Shown here: positions 14,385 through 63,902 of the stretch, one piece after another
How positions within the stretch are numbered: position 1 is the stretch's first letter
Layout: each line of letters starts with the position of its first letter
Origin: Planctomycetia bacterium
GTDB lineage: Bacteria; Planctomycetota; GCA-002687715
Length of the DNA: 64,000 nt
NCBI GenBank assembly: GCA_005790545.1
Contig: SXUL01000036.1
Span: 80,123 to 144,122 of the forward strand
Direction of reading: 5' to 3'
The notes under the pieces: model-generated
What the model was told of the DNA's origin: nothing
Seen by the model: the letters and a program-made list of their open reading frames with translations, nothing else
The model's database searches: none
Position numbers and translations under genes: made by a program

Positions 14385-15197
14385 TCACGCAGGGGACGCA
14401 TGCACAGCCTCCGCAAGCAGCCGGGTGACAGGGCCGTTCACGAGAGGCAGAGCTTGATGTTCCAACGCAGCCACGGCGCGAATGCCCCGCACGGAAGCCG
14501 CGATGAATGCCTCCTCGGCGCCGAGGACATCGGCCGCGGTGAGTTCGCGCTCCTCCACAGGGATGGCCTGACGTACTGCTGCTGCCAGCAGGACCTCGCG
14601 AGTGATGCCCGGCAGAATCGGCAGCAGAACGGGAGGCGTGCAGAGCCGCCCCTGTTTCACCAGAAAGAATGTCGAGCGCGTGCCCTCGAGAATCCGGCCA
14701 TCCGGCATGCGGAGCAGGACTTCATCGAATCCCATGCGCTGACCGGCCTCGAACGCGAGCCTCGCCGAGAGGCCATTCATGGTCTTGTGCTGCGCGAGCG
14801 GGCGCGGCCCGTCAAAGGGTGGCAGCGCCCATCCGAGATGCACCGGCTTCGACGCGTCAGCGGGCAGTTCCTCGGTCTGAATGACACGTTGCGTTGACCG
14901 GCCGAGGTGCAGCAGCGTCACGCGCAGCAGCGCTTCACCCGCCGCGGTCGCAGCACGCGTGCACTCTCGCGCGAGGACCCCGCCTTCAGGAGGCGCAGGA
15001 AAGTTCAGCGCGGAAGCTGAGACCCGCAGCCGCTCCAGATGGCGTTCGAGATGCACAACGCCACCCTGGCTGACGCGCATGGTTTCGTAGAGCCCCGCGC
15101 CGGAGAGCAATGCGGGCGCCGCGAGTTCCAGCGCGACACGCGCTGTCGAGCGGAGTTCGCCATCGATGAGCACACAGAAACGCGAGTCGAGCATCAT
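14385..15197 (-). CDS. pabC: aminodeoxychorismate lyase / class IV (D-amino-acid/branched-chain) aminotransferase-fold protein
   Basis: 270 aa fold-type IV PLP enzyme (..EGTRSTFFLVKQGRLCTPPV..GITR..). Translationally coupled (ATGA) to the upstream aminodeoxychorismate/anthranilate synthase component I gene. Confidence 0.65.
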   Translation of the reverse strand: MMLDSRFCVLIDGELRSTARVALELAAPALLSGAGLYETMRVSQGGVVHLERHLERLRVSASALNFPAPPEGGVLARECTRAATAAGEALLRVTLLHLGRSTQRVIQTEELPADASKPVHLGWALPPFDGPRPLAQHKTMNGLSARLAFEAGQRMGFDEVLLRMPDGRILEGTRSTFFLVKQGRLCTPPVLLPILPGITREVLLAAAVRQAIPVEERELTAADVLGAEEAFIAASVRGIRAVAALEHQALPLVNGPVTRLLAEAVHASPA

Positions 15198-16534
15198 TCC
15201 TGCCCCAAGAGTGCAGCCACCTTCTGCAGCGTCTCTTCCCGCTCCGCTGCGGGATCGGAGTCGAGCACGATACCGCCCCCCGCGTGGAGGTGCAGCACAC
15301 CTCCGCCGCTGTAAAGAGTACGGATGAGGATATTGAAACGGCTGCTGCCATCGCAGCCAATCCAACCGAGCGAGCCGCAATAGGGGCCGCGCGCCTCGGC
15401 CTCCAGAGCATCGATGATCTCCATGGCCCGGATGCGCGGCGCGCCCGTGATGGATCCGCCGGGGTGCGCAGCACGCAGCAAGTCCACCAGTCCGAGTCCC
15501 GGGCGCAGTTCTCCGGTGACTTCGGCCACCAGATGGAGCACCGTCGGATGCACTTCAACATCCACAGGCGAAGGCACGCGCACCGTGCCCGGGCGGCACA
15601 CGCGCGCGAGGTCATTCCTCAGAATGTCCACGATCATGGCGAGTTCCGCACGGTCCTTGGTGGAGGAACGCAGTTCCGTGGCGCGCTGCCGATCTTCCTC
15701 CGTGGTGTGACCGCGAGCGATCGTGCCCTTGATGGGACGCGTCCTCACCGCGGCGCCCTGCACATGCAGGAACTCCTCCGGCGAAAAGGAGAGCAGTGCT
15801 TCGCCCTCATGCTCGAGCCAAGCCCCGAAGCTGGGCGGATTGAGCCGCCGCAACGCGACATGATGCTCGAGAAGATCCGCCGGCCGCGCGAGAGTCCAGT
15901 GCTGCGCGAGATTGGCCTGATAGATGTCGCCGCGCCGGATGTGCTCCAGCGCGCAACGGACCCGCGCCTCGTGCGCCGCCGCATCGGGAGCCTCCAATAC
16001 GGTGGGTGCCACGCTCGACATTGGCGGGAGCGGCCTCTGCAGCGCCTCCAATACGGCCGAGCGCTGCGCAAGAAGCTCGGCTTGCGCCGGATCGTTGTCG
16101 CCGCCATGCAGAACCGCCAGTCGGCCCAAGCCCGTCTGTTCGTCCCGCACCACCGTGACACGACTCTCGATGACAAGGAGATCGGGCAAGGTGGAGAGTG
16201 GCTGATGTCTTCCCGGCAACTCCTCGAGGGCATGCCTCAGTTCGTAACTGAGAAGAGCGACGCAACCGCCGCTGTACTCCGGAGCACCCGGAACGCGTGG
16301 TGCAGCGCCGAGCCGCTCGGCGAGCAGCGCAAAAGGGTCACCTGCATCGCCGCGGCGCCAAGAAAGTCGCCGTCCAAAGGGAAGCGCCAGCACACTGCTG
16401 CGACCGTGGGGAGGACCGCCGCCACTGTCCAACAGAACGGGTGGGCCGAGATGCCTGAGGCGCAGCAGCAGTTCGCCTGCATCCGGCAGCGCACCGAGAT
16501 CTTCCATGTGCGGGTGAAACCCGACTGACGACAT
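15194..16534 (-). CDS. pabB: chorismate-utilising enzyme, aminodeoxychorismate synthase component I (PabB) / anthranilate synthase component I family
   Basis: 446 aa with the chorismate-binding C-terminal domain 'GTIARGHTTEEDRQRATELRSSTKDRAELAMIVDILRNDLARVC...GGSITGAPRIRAMEIIDALE...PYCGSLGWIG'. Adjacent pabC-like gene supports PabB. Confidence 0.8.
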   Translation of the reverse strand: MSSVGFHPHMEDLGALPDAGELLLRLRHLGPPVLLDSGGGPPHGRSSVLALPFGRRLSWRRGDAGDPFALLAERLGAAPRVPGAPEYSGGCVALLSYELRHALEELPGRHQPLSTLPDLLVIESRVTVVRDEQTGLGRLAVLHGGDNDPAQAELLAQRSAVLEALQRPLPPMSSVAPTVLEAPDAAAHEARVRCALEHIRRGDIYQANLAQHWTLARPADLLEHHVALRRLNPPSFGAWLEHEGEALLSFSPEEFLHVQGAAVRTRPIKGTIARGHTTEEDRQRATELRSSTKDRAELAMIVDILRNDLARVCRPGTVRVPSPVDVEVHPTVLHLVAEVTGELRPGLGLVDLLRAAHPGGSITGAPRIRAMEIIDALEAEARGPYCGSLGWIGCDGSSRFNILIRTLYSGGGVLHLHAGGGIVLDSDPAAEREETLQKVAALLGQE

Positions 16535-16570
16535 GGCGCGAGTCTAGCGAGGGGCTGTATCCTGCGGCCA

Positions 16571-17479
16571 GTGAAGCACCTGCGGGCATTCCTGACCCAC
16601 CTCGAACACGTGCGCGGCATGTCCATCCACACGGTGGCTGCTGCTGCGCGCGATCTCACGGCACTCGCTGCAGAACACGGCGGCGTCGCAGCCGACCCGG
16701 CCACTCTCGCCACCCCGCAATTGAAGAGCCACATTGTCGGCCTGGTGGGACGCGGCCTCGCCCGGAGTTCGGTCGCACGACACGCCTCCTCCATCCGCAC
16801 GTTTTTCCGCTGGCTCCTCGACGCTGGTCACATCGAAGTCGATCCGTCGCGCAGCCTGAAGGTCCCGCGGCCTCGGCGCAGCCTGCCGAAGGCGCTCTCA
16901 TCAGAAGACCTGCTGCGTCTCCTCAGCGCCGCGGGCGGCGACGATTTCACCTGCACCCGCGATCGTGCAGTGCTTGAAGTGCTGTACAGCTCCGGTGTGC
17001 GCGTGAGCGAAATGGCTGGATTGTCCCGGGAGGATCTCGATATGCGCTCGGGCCGCATGCGCGTCCTCGGCAAAGGGCGTCGTGAGCGACAGGCCTTTCT
17101 CGGCCGCCATGCCTTGAAGGCACTTGCGGATTGGTGGCCGCTGCGAACAGGGGTCGCGAAGGGCAAGGACCGAGACCGCGTTTTTCTGAACCGCTTCGGC
17201 ACGCCCCTCACCGACAGGAGCATCCGGCGCGTACTGGCGCGGCGCATCCGCGGCGCCGGACTGCCCAGCGGCATCACACCGCACACCCTCCGCCACACCT
17301 TTGCCACGCATTTGCTGACTGCTGGCGCGGGCCTCAAGGAAGTGCAGGAGATGCTCGGCCACCGGCATCTCTCAAGCACGCAGATCTACACCCACGTGAC
17401 ACCGGGCCACCTGAAGAAGGTGCATGAACGCGCGCACCCCCGCGGCAAAGTCAGTCCTCGCACTCCTGTTGGTGCTTGA
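16571..17479 (+). CDS. tyrosine recombinase, XerC/XerD family
   Basis: 302 aa. N-terminal SAM-like core-binding domain and C-terminal catalytic domain with R..HxxR..Y signature ('TPHTLRHTFATHLL...LGHRHLSSTQIYTHV'). No flanking repeats or phage genes, so it is probably the chromosomal dimer-resolution recombinase. Confidence 0.9.
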   Translation: MKHLRAFLTHLEHVRGMSIHTVAAAARDLTALAAEHGGVAADPATLATPQLKSHIVGLVGRGLARSSVARHASSIRTFFRWLLDAGHIEVDPSRSLKVPRPRRSLPKALSSEDLLRLLSAAGGDDFTCTRDRAVLEVLYSSGVRVSEMAGLSREDLDMRSGRMRVLGKGRRERQAFLGRHALKALADWWPLRTGVAKGKDRDRVFLNRFGTPLTDRSIRRVLARRIRGAGLPSGITPHTLRHTFATHLLTAGAGLKEVQEMLGHRHLSSTQIYTHVTPGHLKKVHERAHPRGKVSPRTPVGA

Positions 17480-19715
17480 GGTACCAGCTGAGCATCGCGC
17501 CCACGCATTCGCCGCACCAGTCGTGCTCTTCGAGAAGCCGCGTCCCGAAACCCTGTGCCTGTTCGCGGCGTGGTGCATCCAGGTGCGCGCTGCCTCCCTG
17601 CAGTTCGAGCAGGGCGTCGCGAGCCATGCGCAGCACTTCCCCTTCGCGTTCGCGGAAGAAACTCCGCTCGAGGGTGCGGTACTCGGCGGCGAAGAGCTCC
17701 TTCAAGACCAGCGGCGCATCCGGATCAGAGAGTCGGAAGGCCGCGATGCGTCGGATGAGGTTGTTCCTGAACTCGGCCGCATCCGTGGTGATCCCGAGGT
17801 GCTTCTCGACGTTTTCCATGCTCGCCGCATCGGGAGCACGGTCTTCATGGCGGCGCTCATCGTGCACGCGCTCGCCCGTGCCGAAGGCCTTCACCTCCCG
17901 CAGGTAGTCGTGGAAGATGCGATCTGACTCATTCTCGTCCACGAGCCGCGACGCCTCGCGCAGAGTCTTGCCAAGCCGCAGAACAAGCTCGGCCCTGACA
18001 TCCCTGAGGAAGCTCTCGCTCTGACCGAAGGCCCCGTCAGGCGCGATGCGCAGGAACGCATAGAGCGAGGGGTCTGCGAGCAAGCGCGGCAGGGCATCGA
18101 GGACATCCATCGGTGTGAGACAGGCGCCACTGCGACTGACACTCACCTCGGAGAGCATGCTCTGCATCTCGCGCGGTGAGGCACCCACACGTCCCTCGTA
18201 GGAAGCTTCGACGCATTCCTCGAACTCCTCCTCGGCGCCGTCGTACTCGGCAGCCAGGACTTCGATGCCTTCCGTGAGCGCGTGGCGCTCTGGTTCGTCG
18301 AGCCCTTCAGGCAGCGTGCCGTCCTCATACAGCGCGACCTTGTCGGCAGGTTTCAGTTTCTTCAGCACCTTCGCCAGCACGCCTTCGTGGGCGGCAGGAT
18401 CGGGTCGACGCATGCGCGTCAGCACGGCAAAGAGCGCCGCCACTTCCGCACAGTGTGGCGCGATGTGCATGCCGTGGGCGACGGACTCGAGATGTCGTTC
18501 GTAGATCTTCGCCTCGGTGGAAACCCGTCGGAGGTAGGGCACGCGCACGAGTTCCATGCGCCCCTTGAAGCCGGGGAAAGTGGGATCGCGTTTGAACGCC
18601 GCGAGGTACTTCTCATCCGACGTGCCCACCTGCAGGAGATCGAGGGCCACGGTAATGGCCGGGAGATGAAGCATGCCGCGCTCCACCGTCGTGAGCAGAT
18701 ACTTGTTCGCCTCCAGCGGTCGCTTCAGGAAGTCGCTGTACTCCGCGATGCCGTGGTTGGCATCCACCAGATCGCCGTGAGCCTCGTGCAGATCTTCGTG
18801 CATGAGCACGGCCGGCAGTCCGTCCATGGAACCGTGCGCGAGCATGCGGGAGGCTGCATCCACAGTCGTCTGCGGCTCGATGGTCACTGATCCGATGCGG
18901 TAGCGATGGGAAACGTAGAAGCGCTCGACACGCACGTGCCTGAGCACGCGTTGCCAGTCCCCTTTGCAGGAGCGCAACAACGTCTCGTAGAGCACCTTGT
19001 TCTTGGGGCTGAGTTCGCCGCGCTGAATTGCATCACTGAGCACGAACCGGTCACGCTCCGACGCATCGGCCGTGGCCAAGGCCTCCTCAAGCATTTCGAG
19101 GCGGCGCTTCTTGGGGATGAGCAGCCACGGCGGGTCTTTCATCTCGCAGGGGATGCGACTGGTGATGAAGCGGTCATCCACGTGCGCAAGCGAGCCTTCG
19201 TCAGCATGAGTGCGCCTTCCGAATCCCACCTCGCCTTTCTCCGTCCGCTCGCAGAAGACCCACGAGAACCGGAACAGCGGGCAGTCGTCCGTGCGACTCC
19301 ATGCCTCCAGCCCGTTCCTGAGGCAGTCCACGATGCTCGACTTCGAGGAACCGTTGGGCCCGTGCAGCAGCACGAAGCGGTCGCAGCGCCCGCGCTCGGC
19401 GAACCCGCTGATCACGTCGTAGAGCCGGTTCTGCACTTCCTCCTGCCCATAGACCGTGGCGAGCCCGTCACCGCGCGGATCATCGAAGAGCGCAAAGCGC
19501 CGCGTTGGAGCGCCACCGAGCCCCGGCACCTCGTACGCGCCATGGTGCACAAACAGATCGCGCAACATCTGATGCACGTTGCGCGTGAGTGTGTACGGCC
19601 GCGCGTAGAGGAGTTCGAGATACTCCTCGAAGGTGAGCTGCGCCCGCTGCCCTTCGAAGGAGTCCTTCGAGTGCTGCGTCACACGGGCGATGGCCTTGTC
19701 GATTCTCGGGTCCAT
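17451..19715 (-). CDS. prkA: PrkA-family serine protein kinase (AAA+ N-terminal domain)
   Basis: 754 aa. Walker A 'LLHGPNGSSKSS' in an N-terminal AAA domain and the long conserved PrkA C-terminal domain. Similar to E. coli YeaG / B. subtilis PrkA. Confidence 0.85.
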   Translation of the reverse strand: MDPRIDKAIARVTQHSKDSFEGQRAQLTFEEYLELLYARPYTLTRNVHQMLRDLFVHHGAYEVPGLGGAPTRRFALFDDPRGDGLATVYGQEEVQNRLYDVISGFAERGRCDRFVLLHGPNGSSKSSIVDCLRNGLEAWSRTDDCPLFRFSWVFCERTEKGEVGFGRRTHADEGSLAHVDDRFITSRIPCEMKDPPWLLIPKKRRLEMLEEALATADASERDRFVLSDAIQRGELSPKNKVLYETLLRSCKGDWQRVLRHVRVERFYVSHRYRIGSVTIEPQTTVDAASRMLAHGSMDGLPAVLMHEDLHEAHGDLVDANHGIAEYSDFLKRPLEANKYLLTTVERGMLHLPAITVALDLLQVGTSDEKYLAAFKRDPTFPGFKGRMELVRVPYLRRVSTEAKIYERHLESVAHGMHIAPHCAEVAALFAVLTRMRRPDPAAHEGVLAKVLKKLKPADKVALYEDGTLPEGLDEPERHALTEGIEVLAAEYDGAEEEFEECVEASYEGRVGASPREMQSMLSEVSVSRSGACLTPMDVLDALPRLLADPSLYAFLRIAPDGAFGQSESFLRDVRAELVLRLGKTLREASRLVDENESDRIFHDYLREVKAFGTGERVHDERRHEDRAPDAASMENVEKHLGITTDAAEFRNNLIRRIAAFRLSDPDAPLVLKELFAAEYRTLERSFFREREGEVLRMARDALLELQGGSAHLDAPRREQAQGFGTRLLEEHDWCGECVGAMLSWYLKHQQECED

Positions 19716-27786: not shown

Positions 27787-28578
27787 TCAGGCTTGCAGTG
27801 CACGCCCGGCACTGCTCTCTCCGGTACGCCTCAAGAACGCGATGAGATAGGCCACTTCGGCCGTCACCCAAGGACTCTGCTCGAGTTCGGCCAGCACCTC
27901 GTCGCGCGGCCGTGCGGTCCGGAAGATGACGCGATAGGCGTTGCGGATGGCCTCGATCTGCCCGGGCGAGAATCCGACGCGCTGCAATCCGACCGTGTTC
28001 ACCTTGCGCACCTTGGAGGGATGCCCCTCGACAACCATGAAAGGTGGCACGTCGTGCACGACGCGCGTGAGCCCACCCACGTACGAATGGCGTCCGATGG
28101 TCGCGAACTGCTGGACCGCCGCAGCGCCATTGAGGATGGCTCGATCCTCGATCACCACGTGCCCCGCGATGAGCGCGTTGTTGGCCATGATGACGTGGTC
28201 GCCGATGCGGCAATCGTGCGCCACGTGGCACGCGGACATGAACAGGTTGTTGTTCCCGACCCGCGTCCAGCCGTCGCCCTTGAGAGTGCCGCGGTTGAGC
28301 TGCGCGAACTCGCGCACCACATTGCCATCACCGAGTTCGAGCCAGGTTGTCTCGCCCCGCCAGGTGAGATCCTGCGGCGCTCCACCGACCGCGGCGTGCC
28401 CGTGAATCTGGTTGTTGCGGCCGAGACGCACGTGCGGACCGACGAGGGCGTGCGGACCAATGCTGGTTCCGGCACCGATGACGGTGTCCGCGCCGATGAC
28501 AGCGCAAGGTCCCACCTCGACATCCGCGTCGAGAGATGCCCCGGGATCGATGATGGCTGTCGGGTGAATGCGGCTCAT
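27787..28578 (-). CDS. lpxA: acyl-ACP--UDP-N-acetylglucosamine O-acyltransferase
   Basis: 263 aa from Met 28578 ([42 protein letters not shown]...). Left-handed beta-helix hexapeptide repeats and C-terminal helical domain typical of LpxA. ATGA overlap with upstream lpxC-fabZ. Confidence 0.92.
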   Translation of the reverse strand: MSRIHPTAIIDPGASLDADVEVGPCAVIGADTVIGAGTSIGPHALVGPHVRLGRNNQIHGHAAVGGAPQDLTWRGETTWLELGDGNVVREFAQLNRGTLKGDGWTRVGNNNLFMSACHVAHDCRIGDHVIMANNALIAGHVVIEDRAILNGAAAVQQFATIGRHSYVGGLTRVVHDVPPFMVVEGHPSKVRKVNTVGLQRVGFSPGQIEAIRNAYRVIFRTARPRDEVLAELEQSPWVTAEVAYLIAFLRRTGESSAGRALQA

Positions 28579-29879
28579 GCGTCCATCAACATGAATTTCA
28601 TCACGGCCTGACAAGTGAGTTCGCCGTTGACCGTCGCCTTGCCCTCGACCTTGCCGGCCCGATCCTTCAAGGTGATGGTCTCGCACTCGAGGCGCAACTG
28701 ATCGCCCGGCACCACGCGCCGGCGGAACTTCACGTGGTCGATCGCCACCAGCACGGCCACGCGCCCCGTGTTCTGCAGGCGGCGCAGCAGAAGGACGCCC
28801 GCGAGTTGCGCGAGGGCCTCGATTTGCAGCACCCCCGGCATGATGGGCTGATCGGGCCAGTGCCCCTGGAAGTGCGGCTCGTTGATGGAGACACACTTGA
28901 TGCCCACTGCACGTTGCCAGCCATCCAGTTCCACCACGCGGTCCACGAAGAGGAATGGGTACCGGTGCGGCAGGATCTTCAAGATCTCGCGCACGTCGAG
29001 ACCTGTGTCCGTCTGCAACACGCCTTGGGCTTCGAGTTCCTTCAGCCGCGTGGCGAGTTTCCGGACGAGTGCTTGATTCTCTGCGTGACCGCTGCGCGTA
29101 GCCACGACGCGCGCTTCGAGATCCATGCCCAAGAGCGCAAGATCACCCACGAGGTCCATGAGCTTGTGGCGCGCGGCTTCATCGGGGAAGCGCAGTTTGT
29201 TGTCGCGGACACCCTCGGCCCCGAAGACGAGCGTGTTCCTGGTGTCGGCCCCCTTGCCGAGACCGAGGTCCTGCAGCGCCTTCGCCTCGGCTTCGAGACA
29301 GAACGTGCGGGCCGGCGCGACCTCCGCCAGAAAGCGGTCCTCCTCAAGGACCAGCGTGGTGCACTGGGTTCCAAGACCCGGGACGCCTGGATAGTGCAGG
29401 GTGTACGCAAGTTCGAGGCGGTCCTTCGCGGGGAAGGCCGTGATGCTCGCCTCGCCATCGTGCACAGCCACTGGCACGTCCAGCGCGAACCGCTTGCGCG
29501 GAGCTTTCTGTTCGAGCCGCCCGGAACCGCGGATGATCTCTGCGAAAGGCAGGCTCGATCCGTCGAGGCCGGGAACTTCCGGGCCATCGAGCTCCACATC
29601 CACGTTGTCCACGCCGAGGGCATGCAGGCTCGCGGTCAGATGCTCGACGGTGTGCACGTCCGCATCACCGAGTGCGAGAGCCGTGCGCCGCTCGCGCTCG
29701 ACAACATTCTCGATGCGGAGCGGGATGCGTGGTCTCCCGGGAAGGTCTGTGCGCACGAACACGATGCCGTTGCCCGGTTCCGCAGGACGCAGCGTGACGG
29801 TGCATTCCTTGCCGCTGTGCAGGCCGATGCCGCGCACACTGACGGCACTGCGAATGGTGCGCTGGTTGCGAAGACTCAA
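28575..29879 (-). CDS. lpxC: bifunctional UDP-3-O-acyl-N-acetylglucosamine deacetylase / 3-hydroxyacyl-ACP dehydratase (LpxC-FabZ fusion)
   Basis: 434 aa. N-terminal about 280 aa LpxC (..[35 protein letters not shown].., zinc-ligand region HTVEH). C-terminal about 145 aa FabZ hot-dog fold (..[16 protein letters not shown]...[27 protein letters not shown]..). Confidence 0.9.
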
Positions 29880-52662: not shown

Positions 52663-53274
52663 TCACGCGCGGCGTTGAACCAGCACGGCGAAATCCGTGT
52701 CGTCTTCGGCCTCGAGGCGCTGCGGCGTGGCCCCTTCGAGTGCCAGTGACTCTCCGCTCTTGAGCTGCAGGCGCTTTCCTTTCACTTCCACCGCCAGCGC
52801 GCCGTGGTGCACCACGATGGTCAAGGCGTGCGCCACCCCGAATTCCGGCGCTACCGCGACCGAGCCACGGCGGCCCTCACCGAGGAGAAGCTCCGTCTGA
52901 CCTTGCTGCACGCCCCTGAAGTGGAATGCCCCGGCGCGCAGTTCGCGCGTCTGCTGCACGTTGGTCTCCGTGCGTTCTGCGAGGGACAGCAGACCGAAGG
53001 TGCTGATGCCGAGTCCCTCGGCGATGCGATCGAGGGTGTCGAGGTTGGGCTTGATGAGGTTGGTTTCGATGCGCGAGATGGGCGCATACGAAAGCCCGCA
53101 GGAGCGCGCGAATTTCTCGATGGTGAGGCCCTTTTGTTGGCGCAGCGTGCGGATGACGCTGAAGTCATAGCGTCGGCGGACCTCGTGGGCGCGCTGGTGC
53201 CTGGCGATGACCGAATTCGATTCTTCTGCGACGAGTTCGTCGCCCGTTTCTGAACGCGAAGACTGCGTGGCCAT
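52663..53274 (-). CDS. XRE-family HTH transcriptional regulator with C-terminal cupin domain
   Basis: HTH_3 'IRTLRQQKGLTIEKFARSCGLSYAPISRIETNLIKPNLDTLDRIAEGLGIS'. C-terminal beta-rich cupin-like segment. Start at Met 53274 preferred (MATQSSRSE...). Last gene of the minus-strand microcompartment cluster. Confidence 0.65.
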   Translation of the reverse strand: MATQSSRSETGDELVAEESNSVIARHQRAHEVRRRYDFSVIRTLRQQKGLTIEKFARSCGLSYAPISRIETNLIKPNLDTLDRIAEGLGISTFGLLSLAERTETNVQQTRELRAGAFHFRGVQQGQTELLLGEGRRGSVAVAPEFGVAHALTIVVHHGALAVEVKGKRLQLKSGESLALEGATPQRLEAEDDTDFAVLVQRRA

Positions 53275-53375
53275 GACGGGCCTCCCTCTTGAAGCGGCAG
53301 GCGCTGCCTCAACAGCCCTATCGGGTGTGGCCCGAACCCGTCTTGCGATCAACTCCGGTTCGGGAGGAGTATTCT

Positions 53376-54629
53376 TCAGTGATCGAGAACAACGATCACG
53401 GATTCGCCCACATCAGGGTTGCCCTCGGCCGCACGCAAATGCACCGCGCGGAGGGATTCGATGGCGCCGAGAATCTCGTCGGCCACCCGTTGTGCGGGAG
53501 GGAGCAAGAAGACTTCCCAGCCTTGTGGAGGCTGAGGACGCACTGCATTGGCAGTCCACTCGAGCTTGCCCCGACTGGCCGCGGCAAGCAGTGCCGTCTC
53601 CATCGTTTGCAGCGGCTCCGCGCGCTGAACGAGCAGCGCGCGCACAGCCTCGATCGCAGCGGGCCCTTCAGCCACATAGAGGCGCCGTGTCTCGCTGCCG
53701 CGTACTGCTCCCGGTTCGGAAACCGCGCGCTTCGCCACCAGTTGCGCCTTCGTGCTGGGGACATCGGCATCCAGCGACTCCACGCTGAGGCCACGACCGG
53801 GCTTGCCAGCGCCATCGATCACGGAGATAGCGGCGCGTGCGTCTGCAACGAACGACTCGAAGGCGCGCGCACCGGATGCCACCGCTGCGTTGCAACGTGC
53901 GAGTTCGCGCTCGGACAGCGTCCGCTCGGGCGTAGCTGGCTCTGGAATGCTCTCGGCCCGTGCACGCTCCTGGATGAGTCCCGCTTCGCAGGAAAAACGC
54001 ACACTCAGGCCGTCGTCCGTGGTTCGGCGCGGCAGCGTGAACGCGCGCGTGAGCATCGGCGCGCCAACCAGCGGAGCATTCTTGCGACGCAGGCCTGCGT
54101 GCGGTGCGCGCTTCTCGTCCGCTTCTTGATGGGCGTCCTGTTGCCGCGCGCCGTCAACACCAACTCCGCCTCCGGGGCTGTCCTCGGCAAGGCGGCCAAG
54201 GTCTTTGCTCCTCCCCTCTGTCGTGAGCGTCTCTCCCTGACCGGCTTCCGACCCCTCGGCAGTCACGCTCGGCGCAGGATCACCTGTCCATTCCGAGGGG
54301 CGTGACAGGAGCTCCACCACCCAACTTGTGAGTCCGACCACTGCGACGAGCACCGCAGCCCTCCGCAGCAGCGGGAAATAAGGGAAACGGCGACGCGCCG
54401 GGCGCAGCGCTCCCTGAAGGCGTCGAACCACGTCATCCGCAACAGGCGGGATGGCAGCCCTCCTGAGCTCCGCGCGCTGGCGCGCAAAGGCGCTGCTTGC
54501 GCTCCGACACGCCGCGCAATCGGTCAGATGCTGCTCGAGACGTGCCGCGTCCGCGGCATCCAACCGGCCATCGAGCGCAGCGCTCGAGAGCTCGCGGAAG
54601 GGCTCGCACGGATGCTCTTTCATGCGCAC
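53376..54629 (-). CDS. membrane-spanning anti-sigma factor (zf-HC2 type) with large C-terminal extracytoplasmic domain
   Basis: N-terminal 'HLTDCAACR' zinc-finger anti-sigma motif, one TM helix (AAVLVAVVGLTSWVVELL), then about 290 aa periplasmic region. Overlaps the ECF sigma gene stop by a few nt (translational coupling). Confidence 0.65.
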   Translation of the reverse strand: MRMKEHPCEPFRELSSAALDGRLDAADAARLEQHLTDCAACRSASSAFARQRAELRRAAIPPVADDVVRRLQGALRPARRRFPYFPLLRRAAVLVAVVGLTSWVVELLSRPSEWTGDPAPSVTAEGSEAGQGETLTTEGRSKDLGRLAEDSPGGGVGVDGARQQDAHQEADEKRAPHAGLRRKNAPLVGAPMLTRAFTLPRRTTDDGLSVRFSCEAGLIQERARAESIPEPATPERTLSERELARCNAAVASGARAFESFVADARAAISVIDGAGKPGRGLSVESLDADVPSTKAQLVAKRAVSEPGAVRGSETRRLYVAEGPAAIEAVRALLVQRAEPLQTMETALLAAASRGKLEWTANAVRPQPPQGWEVFLLPPAQRVADEILGAIESLRAVHLRAAEGNPDVGESVIVVLDH

Positions 54630-55189
54630 TCTCCCGAGAGCAGTTGGCGCAATCTCTCGCGCGCGCGAAAGAGCCGCGAGCGCACTGTGCCGGGCGGGAT
54701 TTCGAGAATGAGTGCGATGTCCTCGTAGCTCCGGTCATCAATGTCGCGCAGGATGAGAATGGCGCGCAGTTCCTCGGGCAACTCTCGGAGTGCGTTCAAG
54801 GCGCGGCCGTGCTCCTCTTGCAACATGAGCGATGCACCGGCGTCCTCCGTCACAGCGGGTTCGGGATGATCCGTGGGACCGTCGCCGAGAGTTTGGGTCA
54901 CATTCGGGCGGGCCTTGCGCGCGCGCGCCGCGGACACCACTGTGTTGTGCCCAATACGGCAGAGCCACGTCGAAAAACTGCTCTCGGAGGTGAAGCTCGC
55001 GAGCCCCCTGAAGGCCTTGAGCCAGGTCTCCTGACAGAGGTCGAGAGCGAGTTCGGGGTCGCGGGTCATGCGCAGAATGAAGGCGTGCAAGCGATCGGCA
55101 TGGAGTTTCACCAAGGCCGTGAATGCCTCCTCCGACCCCTGCTGCGCGGCCTTCAGGAGTCCCGCTTCAGAGTGGATTGCGTCACCCAA
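54620..55189 (-). CDS. RNA polymerase sigma-70 factor, ECF subfamily
   Basis: 189 aa. Region 2 'FTALVKLHADRLHAFILRMTRDPELALDLCQETWLKAFRGLASF' and region 4 'LPEELRAILILRDIDDRSYEDIALILEIPPGTVRSRLFRARERL'. Confidence 0.85.
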   Translation of the reverse strand: MGDAIHSEAGLLKAAQQGSEEAFTALVKLHADRLHAFILRMTRDPELALDLCQETWLKAFRGLASFTSESSFSTWLCRIGHNTVVSAARARKARPNVTQTLGDGPTDHPEPAVTEDAGASLMLQEEHGRALNALRELPEELRAILILRDIDDRSYEDIALILEIPPGTVRSRLFRARERLRQLLSGECA

Positions 55190-55228
55190 TCGGCATCCCT
55201 TCGACGCCTGCCAACCGGCCAGGTTCCG

Positions 55229-55504
55229 TCAGCAGCGCACGAGGTCGATACGGTTGGGGCGCGTCTTTGCCACCAGCCATGTCGTGGATGAACCGCCTTC
55301 CCGGTCGGGCCAGCGCAACGCCTTCAGCCCCTTCTTGAAGCGCGCTTCTCCGGGCTGAATGGAAACTTCCGTCTCTTCTTCGCGAATAACCGCGTAGCGG
55401 AAGCGGATGGAGTCATCATCCGTGGGGCCGAACCAGGTGAAGTTCGCCGCGGCCGAATCTGACTTCGGATCAGGACCGAGATGGGGCTTGAAGCCTGCGT
55501 TCAT
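55229..55504 (-). CDS. hypothetical small protein (91 aa) inside the microcompartment gene cluster
   Basis: ORF with high third-position GC consistent with local coding. Sits between the last shell gene and the ECF sigma gene on the same strand with 21 and 39 bp spacers. No similarity recognised. Confidence 0.35.
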   Translation of the reverse strand: MNAGFKPHLGPDPKSDSAAANFTWFGPTDDDSIRFRYAVIREEETEVSIQPGEARFKKGLKALRWPDREGGSSTTWLVAKTRPNRIDLVRC

Positions 55505-55525
55505 GGAGAGTCTCTTGCGGCTCGA

Positions 55526-56128
55526 TCAGCCGCTCACGAATTCCGAGAAGGGGTTGACCGGATCCTCGAAGGCCTGACGCAGGCGCTGATCGGGATTCGG
55601 AATCACCACGGAGTGCCGATGATAGCCACGCTCGCGCGCAAGGCGCGTGCCTGAATCGACGGCCGCTTCCACATCACTTTGTGCACCAGCAAGAGTCACG
55701 AAGGCGTTGCCGCCGAGCCCCATGCCAAGCCGAATTTCGAGGAGACGTACGGCGGCGCATTTGGCCGCGCCGTCCGCTGCAAGCAAAGCGGCGCAGAGAC
55801 TGGTCGTCTCGATGATGCCCACCGATTCGCGCACCGGTTCCGCCTTGCGTCCGCGGAGGACTCGCACGAGATCCGGGTGAGGCTGCGCGAGAAAAAGTGA
55901 ATCGCGGAGTTCATCACGCGCCGCCGCGGCGCCGGCACCGAGAGCCTCACGGACGGCCTCCACACTGCCGCTGAAGAGCGCGATGAAACGACCGGGCGTG
56001 ACCGGCCGCAAGGCCAGCACCTCCACGGTCGCCTCTTTCAGCACTGCATCCGCGGCGAGAAGCCCTCGGGCAACGCTCTCCCACTCGAGCATGCCGAGGG
56101 GCTTCGTATGCGGACGCACGCGCTCCAC
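55526..56128 (-). CDS. bacterial microcompartment shell protein, tandem BMC-domain (BMC-T), PduT-like
   Basis: Two BMC (PF00936-type) domains: 'LGMLEWESVARGLLAADAVLKEATVEVLALRPVTPGRFIALFSGSVEAVREAL' and 'VGIIETTSLCAALLAADGAAKCAAVRLLEIRLGMGLGGNAFVTLAGAQSDVEAAV'. Cys in the second domain at a position comparable to the PduT Fe-S ligand. Confidence 0.8.
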   Translation of the reverse strand: MERVRPHTKPLGMLEWESVARGLLAADAVLKEATVEVLALRPVTPGRFIALFSGSVEAVREALGAGAAAARDELRDSLFLAQPHPDLVRVLRGRKAEPVRESVGIIETTSLCAALLAADGAAKCAAVRLLEIRLGMGLGGNAFVTLAGAQSDVEAAVDSGTRLARERGYHRHSVVIPNPDQRLRQAFEDPVNPFSEFVSG

Positions 56129-56131
56129 AGA

Positions 56132-57121
56132 TCACCTGCGGCGGCGAGGCCGCTTCAGAGAACCGGCACCGGTATCGCCGCTCGAAGGTGCATCCCAGAC
56201 GATTTCGAAGGACTCGTCCGCGCGGGTACTGGCCGCTGGGGCCTCAGAGCGCGGAGCTGGAGTCGATGCAGGCGCCGGAGCAGGCGCTGGTTCCGGCAGG
56301 GTGCGCGCTGGTTCATCCCACACGGGGATGAAGTCAGGTTCTGGCGGCGCTTCGGGAGCCGCACTCGGAGCGGATGCCGCGACATTCGGTTCACGTGCAT
56401 CCTCGCCACGCGGTGCAGGACCACGCTCGCTGCCGAAGCGGTCGCGGCCACGGCCACGGCGTCCACGGCGGTCACCACGCTCCTCACGCGGTCCACCCTC
56501 GCCGCGTTCTTCGCGCGGCCCATTCACGCCACGCTCTTCACGGGGTCCGCGGTCTTCGCGCGGCCCGCGGTCTCCACGCTCCTCACGGGGAGCACGGTCT
56601 GCGCGCGGCCCGTTATCGCCGCGCCCTTCGCGCGCCCCGCGGTCGCCACGTTCCTCACGAGGCCCACGCTCTTCGCGCGGACCGCGATCATCGCGCTCGC
56701 GCCCTGCATCGCGGCCGTCTCTCGGTCCGCGTCCACCACGCTCGCCTTCGGGCTCGCGTTGAGAGCCTTCCTGCCCGAAGCCTCTTTCGGCTGCCCGTGG
56801 CGCCACCGCGATGCCGCGACGTCCAGCAGGCATCTCGGGCACTTCGTCTCCGCCATCCTCCGCCGGTGTCATGAAGCAACTCACCACGCCTACAGCGGCG
56901 CCAGCGACCGGCAGGTCCTTCGGCAGATCGAAACGATCGCCAAGGGGTGCGAGGGCCACGAGCACCAGATCTCCGGCACCTGCACCCGCGCGGTCGACAA
57001 CCACGAGTGCGCCGGTCCACTCCACCTCATGCTCGGGTTCAACGAGCAGGAATCTCAGGCCTTCGAAGGCCGGGTGGACCTTCGCCAATTCGACTTCACA
57101 CTGCACTGTTCCGATGAACAC
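56132..57121 (-). CDS. bacterial microcompartment vertex protein (BMC-P, EutN/CcmL/PduN fold) fused to about 240-aa low-complexity repeat tail
   Basis: Residues 1-85 'MFIGTVQCEVELAKVHPAFEGLRFLLVEPE..GALVVVDRAGAGAGDLVLVALAPLGDR...AAVGVVSCF' match EutN/CcmL. This is followed by about 10 nonamer repeats (GPREERGDR and variants), two 'F-x-VWD-x-P' motifs and a poly-Arg C-terminus. Confidence 0.75.
   Translation of the reverse strand: MFIGTVQCEVELAKVHPAFEGLRFLLVEPEHEVEWTGALVVVDRAGAGAGDLVLVALAPLGDRFDLPKDLPVAGAAVGVVSCFMTPAEDGGDEVPEMPAGRRGIAVAPRAAERGFGQEGSQREPEGERGGRGPRDGRDAGRERDDRGPREERGPREERGDRGAREGRGDNGPRADRAPREERGDRGPREDRGPREERGVNGPREERGEGGPREERGDRRGRRGRGRDRFGSERGPAPRGEDAREPNVAASAPSAAPEAPPEPDFIPVWDEPARTLPEPAPAPAPASTPAPRSEAPAASTRADESFEIVWDAPSSGDTGAGSLKRPRRRR
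56390..56760 (-). repeat. imperfect 27-nt tandem repeat array (about 10-12 units) inside the BMC-P gene, encoding GPREERGDR nonamers
   Basis: Plus-strand units recur with 27-nt period, e.g. 'cacgctcctcacgcggtccaccctcgc', 'cacgctcttcacggggtccgcggtctt', 'cacgctcctcacggggagcacggtctg', 'cacgttcctcacgaggcccacgctctt'. Confidence 0.7.
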
Positions 57122-57137
57122 GTTCGTCCTTCCTGAA

Positions 57138-57767
57138 TCACCGATTCTCGCGGCCCGAGATGGACTCCAGAGCCACAGTCACTGCCTTCACCGCCTCCCG
57201 GATCGCGGATTCCGTTCCGCCGAGATAGAGCCTTCCGAATGCACCGGAGGACTGCATCTCGATCAATTTGACGGGAGCGGCCTTTTCCGCCTCGTTGGCG
57301 GCAATGGTTGCGTAGGCGGCGGGGTGAACCTCCAGAATGTAGAGGGTCTCGCCGCCGAGGATCATATCGCCGAAACGGATGCGGTTGATGAGCTGGGCCT
57401 GGTCGGGGTCGAGGTTGGTGATGATCTGCGAACTCATCACGCGCGGGCGCAGCCGATCCTCTTCCTTGAGGCCGAGGCTCGCGAGCATGCGCGCTCCTGC
57501 CTCGCGCACCTCAGCCTGTGAGTCCGAGTGAAGCTCCAGAAGCCCGAAGGCCCGCTCCACCACCTGCAAACCGGGACGCACATCATTGCTCTTGAGCGCG
57601 ATATCGGTGAGCCGGTTGATCGCGATGCCCGGAGCCACTTCGACAAAAAGCGAGGCCTGACCTTGCACCGGCAGGAATCCTCGCGCGGTGGTTCCCACGT
57701 AGGCCGCGAACGCGGGCTGCATGCTGTCGAGGAAGGTGTACGCCCTGAGTTCGATGCCCGCGGACAT
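57138..57767 (-). CDS. bacterial microcompartment shell protein, permuted tandem BMC-domain (BMC-T, PduB/EutL-like)
   Basis: 209 aa with two circularly permuted BMC units. 'APGIAINRLTDIALKSNDVRPGLQVVERAFGLLELHSDSQAEVREAGARML' parallels PduB '..GVLMADTALKSANVEVV......ILVISGDSGAVRQAV..'. The second unit is 'GETLYILEVHPAAYATIAANEAEKAAPVKLIEMQSSGAFGRLYLGGTESAIREAVKAV'. Confidence 0.65.
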   Translation of the reverse strand: MSAGIELRAYTFLDSMQPAFAAYVGTTARGFLPVQGQASLFVEVAPGIAINRLTDIALKSNDVRPGLQVVERAFGLLELHSDSQAEVREAGARMLASLGLKEEDRLRPRVMSSQIITNLDPDQAQLINRIRFGDMILGGETLYILEVHPAAYATIAANEAEKAAPVKLIEMQSSGAFGRLYLGGTESAIREAVKAVTVALESISGRENR

Positions 57768-57781
57768 GGGCAGTGGAGCTC

Positions 57782-58075
57782 TCAGACTTCGCCGTCGCCT
57801 TCAGGCTGCGGCAGGATGGACTCGACCTGTTCGTGCGGACGCGGAATGACGTGCACGCTCACAAGCTCTCCGACGCGACGCGCGGCAGCGGCGCCGGCAT
57901 CGGTGGCAGCTTTTACTGCACCGACTTCGCCGCGCACCATCACGGTGACGTAGCCGCCACCGATCTTCTCCTTGCCGATGAGGGTCACCTGTGCGGCCTT
58001 CACCATGGCGTCGGCAGCCTCGATGGAACCCACGAGTCCGCGGGTCTCGATCATTCCCAGTGCGATCTTGCTCAT
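57782..58075 (-). CDS. bacterial microcompartment shell protein, single BMC domain (BMC-H, PduA/EutM/CcmK-like)
   Basis: '[81 protein letters not shown]' is near-consensus PF00936. Confidence 0.92.
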
Positions 58076-58120
58076 CGTCGCAGCACCTCAAGCGGGGGCA
58101 GCTCGCCCGCGCGCCACGCA

Positions 58121-59635
58121 CTATCCTCCCCGCTCCGCGCCAGCCGACAAGCCCCGCGGCCCGTTTCCCGCCCGGCGTTCCAAAGCCGCGCGGATGATGG
58201 CTTCCAATTCAGCCGGAGAATGGTGTTCGCCGGGCATGCGCGCCAGGGGGTCCCCAAGCAGGCTCGGGCGTTCCAAGGCAGCCGCTTTCTCGGGCTGGGG
58301 CCAGGGTGAACCGGCTACGGAGGATGCAGGCGTTGCCAACTGGGGCCAATCCGAGAGCGTGTCCCCCTTCCTCCACGCCGCATTCGCCCGCGCCAGGCGC
58401 TTCACGTTGATGAGGTGCTGAGGCCCCACGTTGTCGGAAGTGATATTGCCTCCAAAGGAGCCACAGCCGAGAGTCATCGAAGGAAAGAGCCCGCTGGCTG
58501 CCCCCACGGCACCGAGGGATGTCGGCGCATTCAGGATGATGCGATTCACCGGCTTCTCGAGGGCGAAGGCCCGGATGATGGCCTCATCGCAGCAGTGCAG
58601 GCCGAGCGTGTGCCCTCGTCCGCCGAGCGCAAGAATATCGATGCAGAGCCGGCAGCCCGCCTCGTGCCCATCCACGGCATAGAAGGCAAGCACCGGCGCC
58701 AACTTCTCATACGAGAGTGGATGGCCCGGCCCGAGCCCCGCTGCGCGCGCAACCAACACGGTGGTGGCCTCGGGCACGCGGAAGCCGGCCATGGCGGCAA
58801 TGCGCGCCGCGGACTGCCCGACGACATCGGGATTGGTGCCGCCGTCACGCGCGAGGATGCGCTCGAGCAGAGGCGTTTCTTCAGCCGAGAGCAGATGCAC
58901 ACCACGCGCCACGAGTTCGCGCAGCAACGCTTCTTCTACCGGCCGGTCGCAAACGATGGCCTGCTCGGAAGAGCAGATGGTGGAGTTGTCGAAGGTCTGG
59001 CTGGTGACGATGGCGCGCGCAGTCTCCGCGATATCGGCAGAACGGTCGACATACACCGGCACATTTCCGGGGCCCACGCCAAAGGCCGGTTTGCCGGATG
59101 AATACGCCGCACGCACCAGGCCCGAGCCGCCGGTCGCGAGAATGAGATTCACTTCGCGGTCGTGCATCAAAGCCTGAGTGCCTTCGAGAGCCACATGCTC
59201 CATGCAGAGCGCCCAATCCTCGGGAGCCCCGGCAGCGACGGCAGCATCGTGCGCCACACGAATAGCCTCAGCGATGCACTGCTTCGCGCGCGGATGCGGC
59301 GAGGCCACCATGGCATTGCGCGACTTCAGGCAGCAGATGGCCTTGTAGAGCGCCGTACTCGTGGGATTCGTCACGGGGATGATGGCCGCCACCACTCCGA
59401 AGGGTGCGGCGATTTCCATCACGCCGCGTTCCTTGTCCTCGCTCAGCACTCCGCACGTGCGCATCCCGGCGATGGCTTGCCAGAGTCCTCGCGTCGCAAA
59501 GCGGTTCTTCACCGTCTTGCTCTCGACCCGCCCCATGCGCGTTTCCTCGACAGCCAGCGCGGCGAGACGCGCACTGGCTGCGTGCCCCGCTTCCACCACT
59601 GCGGCCGCGGCGCGATCGATGGCCTCCTGATCCAT
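58121..59635 (-). CDS. CoA-acylating aldehyde dehydrogenase (EutE/PduP family) with C-terminal linker plus probable encapsulation peptide
   Basis: Start at Met 59635 ([18 protein letters not shown]...) preferred. The ATG at 59830 would overlap the divergent peptidase gene. Catalytic Cys in '[14 protein letters not shown]'. NAD/CoA-binding '[12 protein letters not shown]', '[13 protein letters not shown]'. C-terminal Pro/Ser-rich linker then amphipathic helix '[18 protein letters not shown]'. Confidence 0.9.
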
Positions 59636-59823
59636 GTGCTGGAGGCGGAGGAAGGCGCGGCGTGCGCGAGCCGCCCGGTCCCGGGCATCCGCGATGGACA
59701 GGAGATCCTTGTGTCCGTTTTCCGCCACGCGTCGATCCGCCGCGAGTCTACCAGTGCAACGCTTTCCGGCGCGCGAGGGCCGGGCTATCGTCGGCGCCGC
59801 ATGTTGCTCATGGAGATCCGCCG
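59636..59823. promoter_or_regulatory. divergent intergenic region between the microcompartment operon (minus) and the M16 peptidase gene (plus); candidate promoters
   Basis: 188-bp non-coding gap between two divergently oriented start codons. On the minus strand it contains 'GGAAAGCGTTGCACTGGTAGACTCG' (GGAAA-N16-GACTC), loosely resembling an ECF-type -35/-10. Speculative. Confidence 0.3.
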
Positions 59824-62792: not shown

Positions 62793-63902
62793 TCACCAGC
62801 GCCCGCGCTGCACGCTCACACCCTGCACCAGCGCAAGCACCAGCATCGAAACAAGGAGAGATGAACCTCCGGCGGAAATGAACGGCAGCGGCAAGCCCTT
62901 GGTGGGTGCCAGCGCAACAGTCACGGCCATGTGCGCAAAGGCCTGCGCGCCGAGGAGTGCCGCGGCGCCGGCGCAGAGCGTGCGCGCACTCAGCGGCCGC
63001 GCAGCCGCCCCCACACGACAAATGAGCAGAACAAAGGCCATTTCGAGCAGCACGAAGAGAGCGCTGCCGACAAAACCCGTCTCTTCCGCAATCTCGGCGA
63101 AGATGAAATCGTTGTGGTGATACGGCAGGCGGCCGGACTGGACGCAAGGCCCCTCTCCCAACCCGTGCCCGAACAGGCCCCCGTTGCCGACGGCCGTCAG
63201 CGACTGAGCGAGCTGATAGCCGGCTCCCGAACGCTGCGAGGCCGACATGTTCTCGATGTTGATGGTGCTCGCGATGCGCTCTTTCTGGTACGGCTCCAGC
63301 AACATGCCGCCAGCGAGAAAGAGCGCGAGCGCGGCAGCGGCAGTGCTGAAGAGGAGCGGTTTCCAGCGCGCGCCTCCCGCGATGATGACTGCCAGCGTGA
63401 GGGGAACGAACATGAGACTGGTTCCGAGATCCGGCTGCACGAGGATGAGCCCTGTCGGCAGCAGCCCCACAACGAGCACAGGCAACCACTCATGGAATTC
63501 CGCACGCGCACGCTGCGCGCGGTAAAGCTGCGCGAGCATCAGCAGCGTGAAGAGCTTCATGAACTCGGAAGGCTGCAGACCTCGACCGAGAAGTGGCAGC
63601 CAACGCTGCGATCCGTTGATGACTGGTCCTGCCACCTTCACCAGCACGAGCATTCCGAGGCCGACGCCGTAGAAAACCGGCGCCATGGAAAGCACGCGTG
63701 GAAGCGGCAACAGCAAGAGCAGAAAAGACACCGCCCCACCGAGCAGGAGCCAGCGCTCCCATGATGTGGCCAGCTCCTCACCGCCGCGGCCGGCAGCACC
63801 TTGCATGAGCCAACCCAAGAGAAGCAGCAGGCCCCCCGCCAACAGCAAGGGCGCATCGAGGTTGCCGAGGCGGCGGATGGGCTCCGGGAGTCTCACCACC
63901 AA
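62793..63902 (-). CDS. rodA: SEDS-family peptidoglycan glycosyltransferase (RodA/FtsW)
   Basis: 369 aa, 10 TM helices. Conserved 'LPTGLILVQPDLGTSLMF', 'GGLFGHGLGEG', 'HNDFIFAEIAEETGFVGS', 'GLPLPFISAGGSSLL'. ORF-track start is a TTG; a GTG/TTG start is used. Confidence 0.85.
   Translation of the reverse strand: MVVRLPEPIRRLGNLDAPLLLAGGLLLLLGWLMQGAAGRGGEELATSWERWLLLGGAVSFLLLLLPLPRVLSMAPVFYGVGLGMLVLVKVAGPVINGSQRWLPLLGRGLQPSEFMKLFTLLMLAQLYRAQRARAEFHEWLPVLVVGLLPTGLILVQPDLGTSLMFVPLTLAVIIAGGARWKPLLFSTAAAALALFLAGGMLLEPYQKERIASTINIENMSASQRSGAGYQLAQSLTAVGNGGLFGHGLGEGPCVQSGRLPYHHNDFIFAEIAEETGFVGSALFVLLEMAFVLLICRVGAAARPLSARTLCAGAAALLGAQAFAHMAVTVALAPTKGLPLPFISAGGSSLLVSMLVLALVQGVSVQRGRW

Follow-up and report, generated by a model that had tools for sequence, protein, structure and literature searches.

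What does a bacterial microcompartment (BMC) locus produce when its shell genes are accompanied by a single enzyme, and where is the rest of the pathway? The question is raised by nine genes at positions 52663–59728 of a 64,000-nucleotide stretch of contig SXUL01000036.1, from the Planctomycetia bacterium assembly GCA_005790545.1. The whole stretch is referred to below as the window. An earlier note on this DNA had described the genes as one operon for an unclassified, metabolosome-like organelle with an aldehyde dehydrogenase (AldDH) as its only visible cargo. The analysis presented here indicates that they are probably the main locus of a 'fragmented' acetaldehyde-type metabolosome of uncultured Planctomycetota, of the kind catalogued as FRAG8 and close to the type MIC3, with the aldehyde-forming enzyme encoded elsewhere in the genome. 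This reading is carried by the identity of the genes, their orthology to a catalogued locus, the conservation of the block in relatives, a conserved peptide and promoter motifs.

Gene content of the locus

Translation of the window gave nine open reading frames (ORFs) on the minus strand, all in one direction and none interrupted. Pfam and NCBIfam profile searches of the nine supported this layout and the gene identities proposed earlier. The first gene encodes a CoA-acylating AldDH (58121–59728, 535 aa) of the AdhE-N-terminal or acetylating acetaldehyde dehydrogenase type, matched by PF00171 and TIGR02518. It is followed by a BMC-H hexamer protein (57782–58075, 97 aa; PF00936) with KAA...PRPH interface motifs, and by a double-stacking, permuted BMC-T (Tdp; 57138–57767, 209 aa) that is CcmP- or HO-T3-like and matches the CcmP model. 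Next comes a BMC-P vertex protein, of which residues 1–92 (56846–57121) form a divergent EutN/CcmL domain (PF03319) and the remaining 237 residues (56132–56845) a C-terminal tail, delimited by its repeats, its composition and the alignment of relatives. A single-layer BMC-T of the PduT type (Ts; 55526–56128, 200 aa) was assigned with TIGR02526 and by alignment to 3nwg and 3pac. The last four genes encode a small conserved protein with a predicted PilZ-like fold (55229–55504, 91 aa), a group 4 extracytoplasmic function (ECF) sigma factor with r2 and r4 domains (54620–55189, 189 aa), an anti-sigma factor with a zf-HC2 domain (53376–54629, 415–417 aa) and an XRE-family helix-turn-helix (HTH) regulator (52663–53274, called as 203 aa). 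The last had been proposed as an XRE-cupin regulator; its HTH_3 part stood, whereas the weak C-terminal cupin match, with 19 bits against a cutoff of 27, did not.

The intergenic gaps from the AldDH gene to the sigma gene are 45, 14, 16, 3, 21 and 39 bp. The sigma gene overlaps that of the anti-sigma factor, and the gap to the XRE gene is 23 to 101 bp depending on the start chosen for the latter. The AldDH starts with a GTG codon at 59728, and the identical 535-aa product is found in NCBI, ENA and Logan; a start near 59823/59830 was dropped, as the public-assembly product begins at 59728.

Three genes matched PF00936 and one matched PF03319, each match exceeding the gathering score, which makes this a BMC locus. 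The acylating AldDH of family pfam00171 that accompanies them (PF00171, 56 bits), with its catalytic cysteine motif kept, is the feature of a metabolosome. The check that had been suggested earlier, a search with the PF00936, PF03319 and PF00171 profiles, was therefore passed: BMC, EutN and AldDH domains were detected in the expected ORFs. The codons of all nine ORFs are typical of the genome, and the base composition of the window is even, with no island signal. Twelve related loci, cited below by their labels (L004 and so on), were also read.

The aldehyde dehydrogenase and its C-terminal helix

The AldDH scored 538 bits with TIGR02518 and 513 bits with the AdhE N-terminal model. Against the sequences of solved structures, the scores were 431 bits for 5j78, about 369 bits for AdhE and 167 bits for PduP (5jfl). 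By these comparisons, the enzyme is nearest to the acetylating acetaldehyde dehydrogenases and far from PduP.

The conserved core of the enzyme starts by about residue 8, so that the sole extension is C-terminal and there is no N-terminal encapsulation peptide (EP) of the kind found in Haliangium ochraceum (HO). After a proline-rich linker, the extension contains a conserved amphipathic helix (residues 504–519, 58172–58219). In the alignment, its consensus S-x-x-[ED]-L-[EQ]-x-I-I-x-x-A-L is shared by the window, L033, L036 and L039, and partially by L037. The helix resembles the targeting peptide of PduP, SELETLIRTIL. Its hydrophobic moment is about that of the PduP peptide, a value that does not discriminate, as other stretches of the same extension are equal or higher. 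From its conservation and position we infer that the helix is an EP through which the enzyme would be encapsulated. The AldDH fits the 'type I' AldDH with C-terminal EP of the BMC catalogue discussed below. The extension contains no cysteine and is thus without the four-cysteine domain of about 40 residues found in MIC3 enzymes; the AldDHs of L039 and L041 end in a Cys-rich domain.

Shell proteins

The BMC-H protein scored 104 bits with PF00936 and 133.5 bits with the EutM model, and is 80–94% identical across eight related loci. The Tdp matches the CcmP model NF053796 with 299 bits and also PF27545 (CsoS1D_N). Its best match among solved structures is 5v76 (271 bits), which we take to be BMC-T3 of H. 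ochraceum, followed by CcmP (252 bits). The Tdp has thousands of homologs, and near ones with a source name come almost all from metagenome-assembled genomes (MAGs) of Planctomycetota (P0004 is MSR74738.1).

The Ts protein matches TIGR02526 with 114 bits. In the alignment to 3nwg and 3pac, the pore cysteine that binds the 4Fe-4S cluster is replaced by threonine (PVTPGRF vs PVCPGKY), so that the pore residue of a PduT-type iron-sulfur BMC-T is missing. The orthologs CL910_11375 and CMJ90_17160 belong to the clade 'Ts_drab' (Sutter et al. 2021, PMC8217296), which is said in the same catalogue, in the account of MIC7, to be without the pore cysteine. The sequence of the window Ts agrees with this description.

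Comparison with catalogued microcompartment types

The locus is distinct from the PDU, EUT, GRM and PVM types, as had been proposed. It had also been called unclassified, unusual in composition and possibly a satellite locus, and these three views did not survive comparison with the catalogue of BMC loci (Sutter et al. 2021, Nat Commun 12:3809, PMC8217296). The protein P0009, which is CL910_11385, is an ortholog of the window Tdp with 81% identity. It is labelled in the catalogue 'bmcType=FRAG8 (main), Tdp_darkGold, ccmPlike-basalHoT3like', and its neighbour CL910_11375 is labelled 'FRAG8 (main), Ts_drab' (PMC8217296). The contigs that carry P0009 show an M16 peptidase gene on the opposite strand, then AldDH, BMC-H, Tdp, tailed BMC-P, Ts, small ORF, ECF sigma and anti-sigma, where the longest contig ends. 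Identities between the CL910 and window proteins are 81% for Tdp, 93% for BMC-H, 62% for Ts and 64% for AldDH. A locus with the same gene order has thus already been classified, and as a main locus; in the catalogue, additional BMC-P genes and aldolases are what the satellites contain. The darkGold Tdp clade has one further member, CMJ90_17450, whose planctomycete genome also holds a satellite BMC-P, CMJ90_15345 (PMC8217296).

Most FRAG8 loci come from Gemmatimonadetes; a planctomycete and a deltaproteobacterium are the two outliers (Sutter et al. 2021, Nat Commun 12:3809, PMC8217296). In the description of the type, the AldDH carries its EP at the C-terminus, nearly all loci include pfam01791 aldolases, and triplets of BMC-P (green, grey and orange clades) are scattered among satellite loci (PMC8217296). 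AldDHs with a C-terminal EP are also found in FRAG5 (PMC8217296). The window shares with the outliers CMJ90 and CL910 the AldDH with C-terminal EP (the conserved helix 504–519), a standard BMC-H and a main locus devoid of signature enzyme, and with CL910 the gene order from AldDH to anti-sigma. It differs from the written description of FRAG8, which is based on Gemmatimonadetes and omits the BMC-T proteins, the tailed BMC-P, the small protein and the ECF pair. The assignment was made by orthology to the labelled proteins, not with the hidden Markov models of the catalogue.

Two other types were considered. MIC3, which is from the same phylum, shares a drab-clade Ts and a CcmP-like Tdp with the window, and in both the AldDH has a long extension at its C-terminus. 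The window differs in its single BMC-H, its single tailed BMC-P and the absence of both an amidohydrolase of family pfam04909 and a four-cysteine AldDH domain, and membership of MIC3 was rejected. The HO type I main locus consists, like the window, of shell genes and AldDH only, with one BMC-H, a single-layer BMC-T, a double-layer BMC-T and a BMC-P, so that the composition of the window is not unusual. In HO, however, the EP of the AldDH is N-terminal and the enzyme is from the other major AldDH branch, the main-locus Tdp falls in the CsoS1D clade, the BMC-P has no tail, and the taxon is another one. Membership of HO was rejected as the window AldDH has no N-terminal EP. A subset of the HO shell proteins, H, T1 and P, forms 40-nm shells (PMC10853475).

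An AldDH without an obvious signature enzyme is the rule in many metabolosome types, including ACI, FRAG, HO and MIC (Sutter et al. 2021, PMC8217296). As judged from its sequence, the locus is a further example of a catalogued, functionally unsolved kind of BMC, nearest to the planctomycete FRAG8 outliers and with affinities to MIC3. It would work in the manner of the HO type I main locus, with an AldDH of the other class. Three features appear to be undescribed in the literature that could be searched: the vertex protein with a tail and a Trp-acidic motif, the companion of PilZ-like fold and the ECF pair attached to the shell genes.

The remainder of the window

A gene map based on codon usage gave 55 genes in the window, 46 of them outside the locus. 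It replaced greedy calling of the longest ORFs, which picked ORFs on the wrong strand, for example opposite the BMC-P tail. Forty of the outside genes were covered by Pfam scans, and the remaining flank genes by the precomputed Pfam calls for L001. Housekeeping functions were all that the 40 scanned genes yielded, for example ClpB, Dxs, Lpx enzymes, BamA, DnaB, TatC, Rho and ribosomal proteins. In the 64 kb, Pfam detected neither PduL nor an acetate kinase, RpiB, alcohol dehydrogenase, glycyl-radical enzyme or aldolase of class I or II, nor any pfam01791 aldolase of the DeoC type, and tblastn with the locus proteins detected no second BMC or EutN paralog in the window. The combination of signature enzyme, phosphotransacylase and alcohol dehydrogenase that marks a metabolosome is therefore absent from the 55 genes. 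Both claims made previously on this point, that the AldDH is the only visible enzyme of the locus and that no other microcompartment enzyme lies within 64 kb, agree with these scans.

The locus does not form the margin of a larger one; the genes on both sides are syntenic in relatives. An M16 peptidase and RodA lie on one side; a protein with an FGE-sulfatase domain, RecG and a HEAT protein of 993 aa lie on the other. A hint to the substrate from the FGE-sulfatase-domain and M16 neighbours was discarded, since their N-termini resemble export signals by eye, making them unlikely cargo.

The rod-shape cluster MreB-MreC-MreD-PBP2-RodA is found directly upstream of the BMC locus, with or without the M16 peptidase in between (62793–63902 in the window). 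The same adjacency occurs in L033, L036, L037, L039, L041, L044 and L045, spanning 67–100% Tdp identity; so constant a position in the chromosome is unusual for a BMC locus. Elsewhere in the window, a single ORF (28575–29879, minus strand) fuses LpxC (PF03331) to a FabZ/FabA-like domain (PF07977), within an lpxD-lpxC/fabZ-lpxA-lpxB cluster beside bamA and ompH.

Conservation in related loci

The block from AldDH to anti-sigma factor was found in L004, L033–L035, L036, L039, L041, L043 and L044, with Tdp identities of 68–81%. L005 has the same order through the small ORF, which is as far as it was read. A scan of metagenome contigs with the AldDH yielded one 5-kb locus. More distant arrangements were found in L037, L042 and L045 (67–68% Tdp identity), each with a MIC3-like pair of short BMC-P genes. 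L037 and L042 carry a pair of ACT and DUF711 genes and are nearer to the MIC3 of the catalogue; just upstream of the AldDH gene, L037 and L045 each encode a second BMC-domain protein, of 182 and 102 aa respectively.

Several of these loci have particularities of their own. L044 (7228–12611) encodes AldDH, BMC-H, Tdp, Ts, small protein, ECF sigma and anti-sigma, with no BMC-P in the locus. In L045 (6583–8212), a family III CoA-transferase (PF02515) and an extra BMC-H are encoded directly upstream of the AldDH, and the transferase could replace the absent phosphotransacylase in CoA recycling. Downstream of the MIC3-like locus of L042, an unusual protein of 1303 aa (14390–18301) has sigma-70 r2 and r4 domains fused to CarboxypepD_reg-like repeats. 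L004 (CAMARR010000006.1) is titled as a MAG of 'Candidatus Kuenenia stuttgartiensis' and carries the BMC block from AldDH to XRE and the FGE-sulfatase-domain gene as in high-GC Planctomycetota. Its G+C content is 60.6% against about 41% for Kuenenia, and the bin label is therefore doubtful.

The tailed vertex protein

The match of the BMC-P protein to PF03319 is modest (32.5 bits) and restricted to residues 1–79 of 329. The domain also matches HO BMC-P (5v74) with an E-value of 9e-4, and it could be aligned with seven relatives. The tail is a polyampholyte of 237 aa, with 43% charged residues and a net charge of +1, made of about eight PREERG-type repeats followed by a Pro/Ala-rich stretch. 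It contains two Trp-acidic motifs, DFIPVWDEP (56309–56335) and SFEIVWDAP (56186–56212), and ends with the basic segment KRPRRRR (56135–56155). Tails of 83 to 415 aa are found across eight loci, unconserved in sequence apart from the C-terminal motif: a Trp-acidic motif [ILV][VI]W[DE] is found in all eight tailed BMC-Ps, 7–62 residues from the end, and a basic K/R cluster closes the tail in six. No secondary structure was predicted in the tail by an AlphaFold2 model of the full protein, which is of low confidence (four sequences, pLDDT 46.7). A homology search with a profile of the C-terminal motif gave no significant match. Searching with the BMC-P domain alone returned three matches of 85–152 aa, one annotated as partial and another on a contig of 813 bp. 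A contig scan with the full protein returned mostly low-complexity matches to the tail, the true relatives being L004 and L005 only.

The divergence of this domain, together with the absence of a signature enzyme nearby, is what could be expected of a decaying relic that no longer builds an organelle. This is very improbable, as the nine ORFs are intact with genome-typical codon usage, the shell proteins are 62–93% identical to the TARA ortholog, and both the EP and the motif of the tail are conserved.

The repeat-rich tail creates a spurious ORF with very high G+C at third codon positions opposite the BMC-P gene (55983–57136, plus strand). In L043, the public gene call is on the wrong strand (10883–11860, minus) and the actual BMC-P gene, encoding 507 aa (10640–12163, plus), is uncalled. 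Tailed pentamers are perhaps under-annotated, and loci of this sort may look more 'fragmented' than they are.

A Strep tag at the C-terminus of H. ochraceum BMC-P pulls down intact shells (PMC10853475; PMC6056538). By analogy, the tail of the window protein most likely points outward from the shell. Its motif recalls alpha-McdB, which has the C-terminal consensus R(V/I)WPD with an invariant tryptophan required for carboxysome binding (Basalla et al. 2024, PMC11321042). Like alpha-McdB, the tail is disordered and highly charged and has a C-terminal Trp-acidic motif, [ILV][VI]W[DE]xP as against R(V/I)WPD. The disordered region of the window protein is however fused to a vertex protein, in place of a free-standing adaptor, and the resemblance consists of a motif of four or five residues and of composition. 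No ParA/McdA-type ATPase was found in the window by Pfam scans. The tryptophan in an acidic context on a disordered, charged protein is thus present, whereas the ParA partner and the free adaptor are missing, and the likeness to McdB is a lead suggested by the motif rather than a membership. It is conceivable, although quite unlikely on present evidence, that the tail is a built-in McdB-like tether: sixty disordered arms per shell would reach from the vertices into the cytoplasm and, through the conserved Trp-acidic motif and the basic end, dock onto shell surfaces, the nucleoid or the PilZ-like protein, in order to position, cluster or regulate the organelle.

The Pro-rich linker of the AldDH (residues ~465–485, and its equivalents in L004 and L033) also contains tryptophan motifs, SPWPQP, RPWEP and SPWDAP. 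They are loosely like the VWDxP of the BMC-P tail, which may reflect either a shared docking motif or chance.

The small protein

The 91-aa protein matches no family in Pfam or NCBIfam. A model built from seven sequences predicts a disordered N-terminus followed by a six-stranded β-barrel with a PilZ-like fold. Pfam gave no PilZ match, a profile search of PDB sequences gave no PilZ, and the cyclic di-GMP motifs RxxxR and [D/N]xSxxG were not found in the alignment. The predicted likeness to PilZ is in fold only. The small ORF and the basic-ended tail are both present in six loci and both missing from L039 and L041, a co-occurrence that is only suggestive given that the loci are phylogenetically close. 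The small protein of L044 belongs to a different family, common to L042 and L045, with the N-terminal motif ITExDV...ITPxAxD.

Regulatory genes and transcription units

A motif of the ECF promoter type, GGAAC-N16-CGTC, lies 13 nt before the start codon of the sigma gene, within the 39-bp gap (55203–55227, minus strand). It is the single match in the window and recurs with the same spacing and position in L004, L033–L035 and L036, and as a GTGTC variant in L039. A motif of this sort before a sigma gene is the usual signature of an autoregulated ECF promoter, and this one is likely to be autoregulated. A second element, the extended −10-like sequence TGGTAGACT (59745–59753, minus strand), lies 17 nt before the start codon of the AldDH gene. 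It is the only match in the 64 kb, where 0.03 is expected, and TGGTAGAnTC-like elements precede the AldDH gene in seven or eight of nine orthologous loci. This element is likely to be the promoter of the shell/AldDH unit for a housekeeping sigma factor. A simple scan for sigma-70 promoters and terminators gave nothing exceeding chance. From the two conserved elements, the locus comprises at least two transcription units, at variance with the single nine-gene operon that had been proposed.

No ECF-type motif was found before the AldDH gene when the window and its relatives were scanned, which leaves direct control of the shell genes by the ECF factor unsupported. The anti-sigma factor combines a zf-HC2 domain at its N-terminus with one hydrophobic segment and a long C-terminal domain that matches no known family, its topology being read by eye. 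A sigma ortholog, 36–46% identical, directly follows the shell genes in L004, L033, L036, L039, L041, L043 and L044. L004, L039, L041 and L043 also have the XRE gene, which L036 and L044 lack.

It may be asked whether the three regulatory genes belong to the system or are chance neighbours of a six-gene unit that runs from the AldDH gene to the small ORF. Chance would account for the sigma gene having its own promoter while the AldDH gene has no ECF-type motif, for the lack of the sigma/anti-sigma pair in the MIC3-like L037 and of the XRE gene in two loci, and for RodA, RecG and the HEAT protein being as syntenic as the regulators in most relatives. Against this, the pair follows the shell genes in eight loci spanning 68–100% Tdp identity. 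It remains with them both in L044, despite different neighbours downstream, and in L043, despite different neighbours upstream. The steady adjacency suggests a functional tie, and chance proximity, while a real possibility, is the less probable of the two views.

A model of the organelle

The preferred reading, a fragmented metabolosome with its main locus in the window, can be put as follows. The facets would be tiled by BMC-H, with the CcmP-like double trimer and the PduT-like trimer that lacks the cysteine filling the remaining positions and providing pores, and the tailed BMC-P would cap the vertices. The AldDH, recruited inside by its C-terminal amphipathic peptide, would convert an aldehyde, most likely acetaldehyde, with CoA and NAD+ into acyl-CoA. 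The aldehyde-making enzyme would be encoded elsewhere in the genome; a pfam01791 aldolase of the DeoC type is the candidate suggested by the catalogue. Cofactor-recycling enzymes and additional BMC-P paralogs, if any, would also be located elsewhere. The shell/AldDH unit would be read from the housekeeping-type extended −10 promoter. The ECF sigma and anti-sigma factors would form a separate, self-activating unit that, with the XRE regulator, probably sets the timing of organelle production.

Several points weigh against this reading. The FRAG8 label rests on the tree annotations of two outlier genomes, so that the class fits loosely. The aldolase, the extra BMC-P and the phosphotransacylase of this genome are assumed, not seen, and in none of the 12 related loci is an aldehyde-forming enzyme encoded beside the shell genes. 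Acylating enzymes for sulfoacetaldehyde and succinate semialdehyde also match the AldDH (343 bits in the profile search and 288 bits in the structure-sequence search), and similarity alone cannot give its substrate specificity. Finally, the synteny of the flanks makes the adjacency of the regulators weak evidence of function, except in L044 and L043.

The same survey of relatives, in which no locus has another enzyme beside the shell genes, would suit a self-contained minimal compartment, where the five shell-locus proteins and the AldDH are the whole organelle. Such a compartment would scavenge a diffusible cytosolic aldehyde, with NAD+ and CoA not recycled inside but exchanged through the large gated pore of the CcmP-like trimer. 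A single BMC-P suffices to cap a shell, and a double-stacking BMC-T, a type of protein proposed to let larger metabolites through, is present. This is unlikely, however, as the catalogue has a satellite BMC-P in the related planctomycete CMJ90 and pfam01791 in almost all FRAG8 genomes. The main locus of L044 has no BMC-P, so that pentamer genes are to be expected elsewhere in genomes of the clade. In addition, all characterised metabolosomes known to us enclose the aldehyde-producing step.

Metabolosomes of the FRAG, MIC and HO types are widespread in uncultured phyla, and we know of no established substrate for any of them. The window adds one intact example. In its planctomycete form, this is a stable, vertically inherited block beside the rod-shape genes, with its own ECF signalling pair. 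The tail of its vertex protein leads to gene calls on the wrong strand and to apparent assembly breaks, so that catalogues may undercount BMC-P and overcall 'fragmented' loci. The tail also provides a testable link between the vertices of the shell and the positioning of the organelle. If the tether were real, this would be the first vertex protein with a role beyond capping, possibly tied to a receptor of the second-messenger type and to the ECF pair.

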